64,000 nucleotides of DNA from Candidatus Poribacteria bacterium. Lineage in GTDB: Bacteria; Poribacteria; WGA-4E; PCPOR2b. Positions within the stretch are counted from its first letter, which is position 1. The number at the start of each line of letters is the position of its first letter. The stretch covers positions 4,320,001 through 4,384,000 of the forward strand of contig OZ220744.1 in NCBI GenBank assembly GCA_965116925.1. The letters are read 5' to 3'. The notes under the pieces were generated by a model, which ran no database searches, was not told where the DNA came from, and was given only the letters and a program-made list of their open reading frames with translations. Positions 9,668-11,093 of the stretch are shown here, piece after piece. A program made the translations under genes and the position numbers.

Positions 9668-9961
9668 ATGACACCTCAGCCAACCCAAATTCAACGCCTT
9701 CCAGACGCAATTAGTGTTCAATGGAACGATGGACACCAAAGCGAGTATTCCCATCAACTGCTACGTCAAAGGTGCCCATGTGCACGGTGCCAATCAGAGC
9801 AATCGGATAAAAACCCGCTACGCCTGTTACCCACCAACTCGTTATCCAAAAACCTTACACTCGTTGATATACAGCGTGTCGGTCGTTACGCGATCCGGTT
9901 GATTTGGGCGGACGGCCACAAGACAGGCATCTATACATTTGATTTTCTGCGCTCGCTTTAA
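9668..9961 (+). CDS. DUF971 / GBBH-like N-terminal domain protein
   Basis: WNDGH, LRQRCPCARC, GRYAIRLIWADGHKTGIYTFDFLR. Confidence 0.9.
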   Translation: MTPQPTQIQRLPDAISVQWNDGHQSEYSHQLLRQRCPCARCQSEQSDKNPLRLLPTNSLSKNLTLVDIQRVGRYAIRLIWADGHKTGIYTFDFLRSL

Positions 9962-10046
9962 CCAAGTCTGATAGGGACGGTGTCCGGTTGATGAACCCCT
10001 TTCATCAACTGATTCTCTCTCCTGTCACCTTTTCACGGATGGTTTG

Positions 10047-11048
10047 CTAATCATTTCCAGCAGCACTTTGATTGTCCACCTGTTCCTCCGATGAAAACAC
10101 CTTAAAATCACAGATAGCGTGCCGAAAAACAACGATTTTTGATTCGTTTTCTAAAATCATCTTAATCTCGTACCTGCTGACCCAATCCACCAATCCCCGA
10201 AAAACTTCTCCTTCCAGCATCGTGACTTCGATTGTGTGCCGAGCCCGCCGCGCTTGAACAATAGTTCGCGTATCGAGACTATAGCGTTTTTTTCGTTGTA
10301 TTATGGGTTTTAAGTTTTGTTCCTTAATTTCCTCGTTGTAGCGGATAATTGACTGTATGTCCGTAGCATCCTTCGCCTTGTAACAGTATTTGACATCGGT
10401 TTTCGGCAGTTCTTGTCTTTCTGCTTCCCCCCCGATAGGATTGGGATTCCGAGCAACTTGTAAAACGAAGTCGTATTTGGTGAATCCAGTGACTGTCACA
10501 GGTAGCAGCGTATGATTATACAATCCAAAAAACATGGGCGTTTGAAGACGGATCTGTTTCTGTGTGTAGAGATCGCCAAAGGTTGGCTGTTCATCAGGCG
10601 AGGAGGCTAGTTCTGGTTTGGGAGTGTGCGGAGGAGAAGGTTTCTGATCTGGGGGAGTATCAATCAATTCAGACGTTGCTGTTTTAACTCTTGGAGTTGA
10701 TAAAGCAGCCGGTGTGGGTCGAGTAGGACTTTGAGACGAGGCAAACGCCTCCTTCTCAGAACCATCTCTTGGCTGCTGAGGTGGGACATAGTTGCGAGGT
10801 ATCACTGCCTTACCTTGCCTCAATCGCTTCTGCTCAAGTGGGGTAAGCAGGATTTTGACGTTCTGGGCGATAGGACCTCTATCGCCAACAGCTACTTCGT
10901 ATCTGACATGCTGTCCTACGTGAATTTCGTCGTATCCACCCTGGATCGCGGAGATATGCATAAAAACATCTCCTTCACCGGTGTCTTGAGCGATGAATCC
11001 ATACCCTTTGTCTGAGTTATAATATTTGACTCGTCCCGTTAGCATCAT
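10047..11048 (-). CDS. Cold-shock domain protein fused to two Hfq/Sm-like domains
   Basis: CSD with RNP1 KGYGFI and RNP2 VFMHIS, Pro/Ser-rich linker, C-terminal Sm-like domain ending VVFRHAI. Confidence 0.75.
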   Translation of the reverse strand: MMLTGRVKYYNSDKGYGFIAQDTGEGDVFMHISAIQGGYDEIHVGQHVRYEVAVGDRGPIAQNVKILLTPLEQKRLRQGKAVIPRNYVPPQQPRDGSEKEAFASSQSPTRPTPAALSTPRVKTATSELIDTPPDQKPSPPHTPKPELASSPDEQPTFGDLYTQKQIRLQTPMFFGLYNHTLLPVTVTGFTKYDFVLQVARNPNPIGGEAERQELPKTDVKYCYKAKDATDIQSIIRYNEEIKEQNLKPIIQRKKRYSLDTRTIVQARRARHTIEVTMLEGEVFRGLVDWVSRYEIKMILENESKIVVFRHAICDFKVFSSEEQVDNQSAAGND

Positions 11049-11093
11049 TTTTTCTCCGTTGGATTAAAGATTTCCGATTGGAATGCGAGCGAT

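Follow-up and report, generated by a model that had tools for sequence, protein, structure and literature searches.

Background

The question raised by this locus is whether a single bacterial gene can unite in one chain the two main RNA chaperones of bacteria, Hfq and the cold-shock proteins, which are normally separate small proteins. The gene lies on the minus strand of a 64,000-nucleotide stretch of a Candidatus Poribacteria genome (contig OZ220744.1, positions 4,320,001 to 4,384,000), hereafter called the window. An initial annotation of this stretch had proposed that the open reading frame (ORF) encodes an intact cold-shock domain (CSD), a long linker and two similar beta-rich units, the last resembling Hfq and the preceding one a degenerate copy of it, and that three such chains could form a pseudo-hexamer. 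The analysis presented here finds that the gene encodes a multi-domain protein which is conserved across Candidatus Poribacteria, and that its product is, judging from its domain content, an RNA-binding protein. The evidence for the two units and for the family to which they belong is given first, followed by the weighing of the mechanisms by which such a protein might act and by a description of the locus.

A natural fusion of a CSD to Hfq matters because it allows a direct test of whether the melting and the annealing of RNA become coupled once both chaperones are tethered to each other. In addition, a chain of two Sm units of which one is degenerate would show how a homo-oligomeric ring can evolve to a pseudo-heteromeric one, a step which the eukaryotic Sm/Lsm rings made by means of separate paralogues.

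Results

Domain layout and conservation

The anatomy of the protein was derived from an alignment of 96 homologues (alignment A2), two AlphaFold models and statistics computed for each region; column counts and identities given below refer to these 96 sequences, and coordinates refer to the window. The features of the gene are as follows.

10047..11048, minus strand: whole ORF (P0001), 333 codons plus stop, ATG start, intact
11054..11057, minus strand: GGAG Shine-Dalgarno sequence, read from the sequence, with a 5-nucleotide spacer to the ATG at 11048
10851..11048, minus strand: CSD, residues 1-66 (Pfam, PDB profile, Foldseek)
10791..10850, minus strand: basic segment, residues 67-86 (conservation; short helix in the model)
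10593..10790, minus strand: linker rich in P, S, Q and T, residues 87-152 (disordered, hypervariable)
10374..10592, minus strand: unit 1, degenerate Sm/Hfq-like, residues 153-225 (AlphaFold2 topology; hhalign to unit 2)
10272..10373, minus strand: helical connector, residues 226-259 (constant 34 residues; short helices in the models)
10095..10271, minus strand: unit 2, Hfq-family Sm domain, residues 260-318 (profiles, relatives, Foldseek)
10050..10094, minus strand: acidic C-terminal tail, residues 319-333 (variable; net charge -4; predicted local distance difference test, pLDDT, below 50)

The whole architecture is retained in 195 homologues detected at E <= 1e-3, and since both units are also under constraint, the layout reflects more than chance. 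The architecture survey that had been suggested therefore finds the complete arrangement widely kept, but it also reveals a module formed by the two units that exists without the CSD, which the initial annotation had missed.

The CSD is intact, as had been claimed. The strings KGYGFI (residues 14-19) and VFMHIS (residues 28-33) are both present, and the Pfam CSD family (PF00313) matches residues 4-65 with E 7.8e-19 (67.8 bits against a cut-off of 27). Under the definitions assumed here, KGYGFI is the motif like ribonucleoprotein motif 1 (RNP1) and VFMHI (residues 28-32) the RNP2-like motif, lying on strands 2 and 3. The domain is modelled with five strands as a barrel of the oligonucleotide/oligosaccharide-binding type, for which Foldseek returns CspE, CspC, CspA and CspB (target template-modelling (TM) score 0.84-0.92), with a root-mean-square deviation (rmsd) of 1.0-2.0 A to CspE, CspC and CspA, while the profile matches in the PDB are CspA and CspB at E about 1e-19. 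Columns K14, F18, I19, D27 and F29 are invariant, the mean pairwise identity is 0.74, and the top-scoring models are those of CspE and CspA, which are RNA chaperones and antiterminators. The N-terminal 66 residues thus equal CspA, CspE and CspB in fold, RNP motifs and length, but whereas Csp proteins are stand-alone proteins of about 70 residues, this CSD heads a protein of 333. Residues 5-66 also match the NCBIfam model of the retron Se72 effector (E 1.9e-11, 43.7 bits against a cut-off of 82), which most likely represents generic CSD similarity; no retron-like features were seen near the gene.

The segment that follows the CSD, LLTPLEQKRLRQGK.VIPR, carries a net charge of +4, forms a helix at residues 70-77 in the model, and has the highest mean pairwise identity of any region (0.80), with T69, Q78, G79, K80, I83 and R85 invariant. 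The linker beyond it is at the opposite extreme, with the lowest mean pairwise identity (0.33) and a length that ranges across the family from 44 to 110 residues. That it is long and rich in Pro, Ser and Thr had been noted correctly: in the window protein its 66 residues include 15 P, 9 S and 7 T and are modelled with pLDDT below 50, and the family-wide composition is P 17.7%, S 13.3%, Q 9.4% and T 8.7%. In the C-terminal tail, acidic residues outnumber basic residues in 64 of the 96 sequences.

Assignment of unit 2 to the Hfq family

Unit 2 is, by sequence, a diverged Hfq-family Sm domain, and this assignment is solid because its relatives and the profiles reach Hfq. The search with the whole protein yielded 14068 proteins at E <= 1e-3, mostly through the CSD; among the matches listed, at least 35 proteins carry the two-unit module, and 32 of these 35 were scanned with Pfam. 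The Pfam cut-off of 27 bits is exceeded in 6 of these 32 distant relatives (the top one, P0211, at 44.3 bits), and at E <= 1 the Pfam family Hfq is matched by 52 of 58 family members and Hfq_1 by 51 of the 58. TIGR02383 matches 14 of the 16 members that lack the CSD, with a best E of 5.1e-13. A profile of the module alone, when compared with the PDB, produces 45 sequences at E <= 10, of which 37 are Hfq or Hfq-like (the best at 1.5e-5 to 9e-4); the remaining 8 sequences, all NusA, have E values of 0.37-0.53.

Structural comparison of the C-terminal half with Hfq, which had been recommended as a check, points in the same direction. Foldseek places Hfq crystal structures at the top of the PDB matches to the module model, with target TM 0.75-0.88 and rmsd 1.0-2.7 A over about 60 residues, in a table that gives no indication of which of the two units was aligned. 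The top matches come from Staphylococcus, Listeria, Synechocystis, Caulobacter, Bacillus, E. coli, Aquifex and Thermotoga. With the full-length model, the PDB matches listed were to the CSD only, and the module-only model was used instead.

The residues of Hfq that contact RNA in the uridine pocket, at the rim and at the distal adenine site, which are assumed here from general knowledge, were mapped onto the protein by means of a printed alignment to Caulobacter Hfq, the register of the hhalign alignment between the two units, and the column counts. In unit 2 (mean pairwise identity 0.73, both units falling within 0.71-0.76), the Sm1 glycines G280 and G285 are invariant, and the pocket aromatic Y293 is kept in 87 of the 96 sequences. 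The FRHAI string singled out by the initial annotation as the Sm2 signature is real and conserved (F308 96/96, R309 94/96, H310 95/96, A311 94/96, I312 91/96). A basic patch on the helix, similar to the rim (ARRAR), comprises R267 (95/96), R or K at 268 (82/96) and R270 (48/96), and other conserved strings are EGE.F.G and VDW..Y. In its Sm fold, and in keeping the Sm1 glycines, the aromatic of the pocket, [YF][KR]HAI and the basic patch of the helix, unit 2 therefore agrees with Hfq (PF17209, TIGR02383; PF21979 Hfq_1, NF047718); the comparison with the "mobile" cyanobacterial/archaeal type of Hfq includes the M. jannaschii MJ1435 structures 2qtx and 5dy9. It differs in its distal-face residues and in its context, because Hfq is a single domain of about 60-100 residues that forms a homohexamer, whereas unit 2 is the second half of a tandem which is fused to a CSD. 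No second Hfq-like ORF is found within the window.

Unit 1 as a degenerate copy

Unit 1 is, as far as profiles and models can indicate, an older, degenerate copy of the Sm fold of unit 2, which is how the initial annotation had read it. When the profiles include distant relatives, hhalign aligns unit 1 with unit 2 at 90.3% (E 1.5e-6, score 31.2), keeping register from the N-terminal helix up to and including strand 4. The control scores are low: 10.8 for unit 1 against the CSD, 16.7 against reversed unit 2, and at most 14.0 for 40 column shuffles of unit 2, none of which (0/40) reaches 31.2. The modelled topology is that of unit 2, with a helix at residues 157-167 followed by five strands. A solved Hfq structure, 6xyj, aligns over all of unit 1, weakly (E 0.33), and unit 1 of the distant relative P0161 aligns weakly to the first half of NF010691, a model of an Hfq form considered below. 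Of the pocket residues, just two survive in unit 1: the aromatic Y192 and K216, the latter at the basic position of Sm2 and present in 96/96 sequences.

The only loop of unit 1 that varies in length is that between strands 3 and 4 (residues 198-210; 10410-10454, minus strand), which ranges from 4 to 39 residues; in P0052 and P0072 (alignment A1) it holds an insertion of about 20 residues rich in Ser, Asp and Glu. The corresponding loop of Sm proteins is presumably the one called L4. The length of Sm loop L4 is described as highly variable in the available text of a published review (PMC3710371).

The two-unit module and its wider family

The two beta-rich units were found where the initial annotation had placed them, and they are predicted to form a single body. 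In the model of residues 153-321 (alignment A3), each unit consists of one helix and five strands, i.e. an Sm fold, with pLDDT above 90; because the mean pLDDT of the module is 92.8 and its predicted TM score (pTM) is 0.88, the prediction is of a single compact, rigid body of about 165 residues that comprises both units and the connector. The connector has 34 residues in 96/96 sequences, with an identity of 0.59, and R255 within it is invariant across the set that lacks the CSD.

The module constitutes a separate family, which evolves as a unit and exists without the CSD. The 32 scanned relatives include stand-alone module proteins of 152-204 residues (typically about 170). An N-terminal CSD is present in 12 of the 32, one of the 12 having two CSDs; a C-terminal helix-turn-helix (HTH) domain of the XRE type (HTH_3) is present in 4 (P0123, P0125, P0144 and P0151), and a DnaJ_C-like region in one (P0131). 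The layouts observed in these five proteins and in P0133 are thus CSD-module-HTH_3, module-HTH_3, CSD-module-DnaJ_C-like, and two CSDs plus module. The forms that bear an HTH suggest that some members regulate transcription.

The family is consequently far wider than the Poribacteria fusion, its module occurring alone, with a CSD, with two CSDs or with an HTH. Its members appear in public records only as "cold shock domain-containing protein", "hypothetical protein" or "Hfq": the names found include "sRNA-binding regulator protein Hfq" (JGI), cold-shock or hypothetical proteins in metagenome-assembled genomes (MAGs) of Pseudomonadota, Deltaproteobacteria and Acidobacteria, and, for P0123, the JGI name cold shock CspA family protein/DNA-binding XRE family transcriptional regulator. 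Recognition of the module family should lead to better annotation of RNA regulators in uncultured phyla.

There is no sign of mobility of the module, since tblastn of the module against plasmids gave only one chance-level match (E 0.5, under a CBS-domain gene) and tblastn against phages gave none. A Foldseek search among viral predicted structures found no viral analogue of the tandem: the long alignments, with an rmsd of 10-20 A, carry no meaning, and the phage proteins that do superpose on the module are all small, single-domain and Hfq-like.

Relation to known systems

The closest published parallel is the Hfq of Zymomonas mobilis (ZMO0347), which has two Sm-like domains, as do those of six other Sphingomonadales, and is 60% identical to E. 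coli Hfq; the available text of that report explicitly asks whether three chains make the Zymomonas Hfq ring (Yang et al. 2010, PMC2877685). In the literature, no subsequent study was found that settles the oligomeric state of the Zymomonas protein. Zymomonas Hfq, as portrayed in that text, resembles the Poribacteria protein in having two Sm domains per chain and in raising the same question of a three-chain ring, but it is without a CSD or long tether, and it is far more canonical, whereas unit 2 of the Poribacteria protein is a remote relative of Hfq and unit 1 is not seen by Pfam.

The tandem Hfq of the Sphingomonadales is taken here to be represented by NF010691/PRK14091, a model named "RNA chaperone Hfq" with a length of 176 and a cut-off of 270. 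All 12 distant members that were tested score only 11.8-26.4 bits against this cut-off, and the window fragment gives no match to the model at E <= 10; members align weakly along its 176 positions, and unit 2 fits either half. On sequence grounds the present tandem family is distinct from tandem Hfq of the NF010691 type, and it probably arose from a separate duplication.

Precedents for Sm modules in fusions are given by Mura et al. 2013 (PMC3710371), namely a zinc-finger-Hfq on Thermococcus plasmids, SmAP3 and MscS; the available text describes neither a CSD partner nor two Sm domains per chain. The text of the supplement to PMC11607428, in which Fig. S2 is represented by its legend, likewise mentions no CSD, tandem or fused form of Hfq, and no description of a CSD-Hfq fusion or of a two-Sm module family was found in the literature. 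The claim that the architecture is uncharacterised consequently holds for the fusion but not for all of its parts: as far as the available text of PMC2877685 goes, the tandem Hfq and the three-chain question were already in print. What seems to be new here is the fusion of a CSD with tandem Sm units and the wider family of two-Sm modules.

Discussion

Proposed mechanism

The reading preferred here, to which roughly an even chance is given, sees in the protein a composite RNA chaperone or regulator, in which the tandem module would serve as an RNA-binding platform of the Hfq type, the tethered CSD would capture or melt single strands, and the acidic tail may gate the rim. Unit 2 would supply the uridine pocket and the rim (Y293, R309-H310 and R267/R268/R270), and because unit 1 retains just Y192 and K216, at most every second site could be complete. 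The units most likely pack side by side like neighbouring Sm subunits; if they are arranged as Hfq subunits are, complete and incomplete sites would alternate, and the module would either close a six-unit ring from three chains or remain a two-unit platform. The CSD with its long tether would act close to this platform, holding or melting single-stranded RNA, while the tail may compete for the basic rim in the manner of the C-terminal tip of E. coli Hfq, for which the analogy is drawn from the available text of PMC5606850. Overall, the protein would chaperone RNA or regulate gene expression after transcription. A prediction of the trimer (three copies of residues 153-321, alignment A2), run without controls, gave a score of 0.00 and a mark of 0.42, and speaks neither for nor against a ring.

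A bolder version of this proposal is distinctly unlikely. It would hold that Poribacteria and scattered other bacteria use the two-Sm module instead of classical Hfq, with three chains forming a pseudo-hexamer of alternating complete and degenerate pockets, three CSDs on tethers of 44-110 residues, melting and annealing combined in one particle, and tails gating the rim; the modules without a CSD or with an HTH would then represent a broad new branch of Sm proteins, which may include the FljA repressors.

Several observations weigh against the Hfq-type reading, and they concern the recognition of the units, the residues at the presumed binding sites, and the setting of the gene. The window protein itself misses every family threshold, scoring 21.0 bits (E 3.8e-4) with Hfq_1 and 18.0 bits (E 2.3e-3) with Hfq against the Pfam cut-off of 27, 19.7-21.5 bits with TIGR02383 against 61.7, and 21.1-23.6 bits with NF047718 Hfq_rel_Cyano against 52. 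Its best models are those of the cyanobacterial/archaeal type (Hfq_1, Hfq_rel_Cyano, MJ1435), at least one member of which is presumed to bind RNA poorly. The best Foldseek E value of the module is just 1.1e-3, with no match at or below 1e-3. For unit 1, the match to unit 2 vanishes when the profiles contain only Poribacteria sequences (E 0.71), and none of 13 unit-1 fragments has a significant Pfam match (one Hfq_1 match, E 0.052). Both Sm1 glycines are missing from this unit, with H179 and V184 in their place, and P-K-T-D-V stands where unit 2 has the Sm2 motif, Thr replacing His.

The binding sites of unit 2 also depart from those of Hfq: where the uridine pocket of Hfq has its helix Gln, the alignment shows D or N, and the distal-face positions are T276, E281 and V282, which, together with the invariant E279 and E281 of the E-G-E string, makes an A-rich binding face of the E. 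coli type unlikely. Finally, classical hfq has a neighbourhood of miaA, hflX, hflKC and mutL (PMC11607428, section 7), and no miaA/hflX neighbourhood was found around the window gene, nor do miaA, hflX or mutL occur among the 36 flanking ORFs of 10 distant loci.

Alternative explanations

The alternative that survives best, although it too is unlikely, is that no ring is formed: the two units would pair within the chain as a closed two-barrel platform, and the protein would act as a monomer or dimer in the site-specific regulation of mRNA translation. Such a platform agrees with the compact model of the module, which is rigid on its own (pTM 0.88), with the conserved connector of constant length, and with the loss by unit 1 of half of its pocket residues, which makes a six-fold symmetric binding surface impossible. 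Several eukaryotic Sm-like domains (Gemin6/7, Edc3 and Scd6) are not known to form rings. The edges formed by strands 4 and 5, however, are conserved in both units, and these would be needed by a ring as well.

A regulator of translation is also what the nearest neighbours of the module in the ESM Atlas would suggest, FljA being taken here to be a repressor of fliC mRNA translation. Both the module (residues 153-321; 10086-10592, minus strand) and P0130 lie nearest to clusters annotated Flag1_repress, with scores of 0.91-0.93 and 198-207 shared features, and one Atlas cluster is labelled both Flag1_repress (15%) and Hfq (13%). FljA / Flag1_repress (PF03614) is thus the nearest language-model neighbour of the module and similar to it in size, the neighbours having 135-179 residues, but it is a lead only. 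The two queries are 53% identical and hence not independent, and scores of 0.9 or more arise by chance 4-10 times per 100. Moreover, the link failed every sequence-profile test: Pfam gives no Flag1_repress match to the window protein at E <= 10, where the HMMER filters may hide very weak ones; Flag1_repress is absent among the 25 most frequent of the 70 Pfam families in 58 members; and the FljA model is absent among the 25 NCBIfam families matched by 16 members.

That the protein is instead directed to DNA, as a nucleoid-associated protein or transcription factor whose CSD acts on single-stranded DNA and whose Sm module serves for oligomerisation or DNA binding, is considered improbable. The four distant relatives with a C-terminal HTH_3 and the XRE name attached to P0123 lend themselves to such a role, as does the title of the Pfam CSD family, "Cold-shock DNA-binding domain", but the Poribacteria family itself has no HTH, and the models that its CSD fits best are those of CspE and CspA, both RNA chaperones and antiterminators. 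E. coli Hfq does bind double-stranded DNA according to the available text of PMC7144919, and the structure 5uk7 is among the Foldseek matches; against this, the residues conserved in the module are those of the RNA pockets of Hfq.

Least probable of all is a scaffold in which the Hfq-like module no longer binds nucleic acid but binds proteins, leaving the CSD as the sole RNA-binding part, because the retention of Y293, R309, H310 and R267 in 87-96 of the 96 sequences is hard to explain without a nucleotide site and the classical Hfq models are the best across the wider family (TIGR02383), even though the cyanobacterial-type models do slightly better on unit 2 (Hfq_1 21.0 against Hfq 18.0 bits, Hfq_rel_Cyano 23.6 against TIGR02383 21.5 bits), the acidic EGE at the distal face is invariant, and P0131 has its DnaJ_C-like region.

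Distribution and genomic neighbourhood

A scan at the species level, with one genome per species, produced 80 loci, of which 21 match through the CSD alone and 59 are near-full-length orthologues (55 titled Candidatus or uncultured Poribacteria and 4 "uncultured bacterium"). The Poribacteria among these 59 are represented by MAGs and single-cell genomes only, so that insight into their post-transcriptional regulation must come from proteins of this kind studied heterologously.

The gene resides in a region with a G+C content of 0.47-0.51, like the remainder of the window. Its neighbours in the window are ordinary metabolic genes, encoding a GFO_IDH_MocA oxidoreductase, a PhyH dioxygenase, a polysaccharide deacetylase (Polysacc_deac_1) and an Fe-ADH-like protein, and the gene of a GBBH-like_N protein. 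An assignment of function from the operon was attempted and abandoned: the upstream metabolic genes are common to only 8 of the 59 loci and are therefore uninformative on function. The neighbour that is kept best is the small convergent gene on the other side:

9668..9961, plus strand: GBBH-like_N (DUF971) small gene, convergent (Pfam E 2.7e-25)

This gene is present in 49 of the 59 loci, well above any other neighbour, and copies elsewhere include L007:7682-7996, L014:7604-7915, L019:8573-8905 and L023:7541-7909. Its adjacency may reflect either synteny at the level of the phylum or a functional link.

No match at the gathering score was obtained with Rfam over the entire window, so no cspA-type thermosensor or other known RNA is present there, and inspection of the minus strand from the gene to the next ORF upstream revealed nothing that resembles a sigma-70 promoter. 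An 11-pair hairpin at 9985-10011, within the 85-bp gap between the convergent genes, could terminate both; it is terminator-like in the plus-strand reading only, and the region has 3 such sites against a shuffle mean of 1.8.

In 46 of the 59 loci a gene of about 190-215 residues lies directly downstream on the same strand (for example L007:7018-7635, L014:6896-7540, L019:6971-7537 and L027:6926-7531), and 4 of the 9 copies scanned match the Pfam family CxxCxxCC (PF03692, putative Zn/Fe-chelating). The gene has been lost from the window and from the loci most closely related to it (L001-L006, L008 and L035), and tblastn detects no remnant of it in the window. At one locus of an "uncultured bacterium", L054:5665-7101, the longest ORF has 479 residues with the CSD beginning at residue 115, which represents either an N-terminal extension or an upstream in-frame start.

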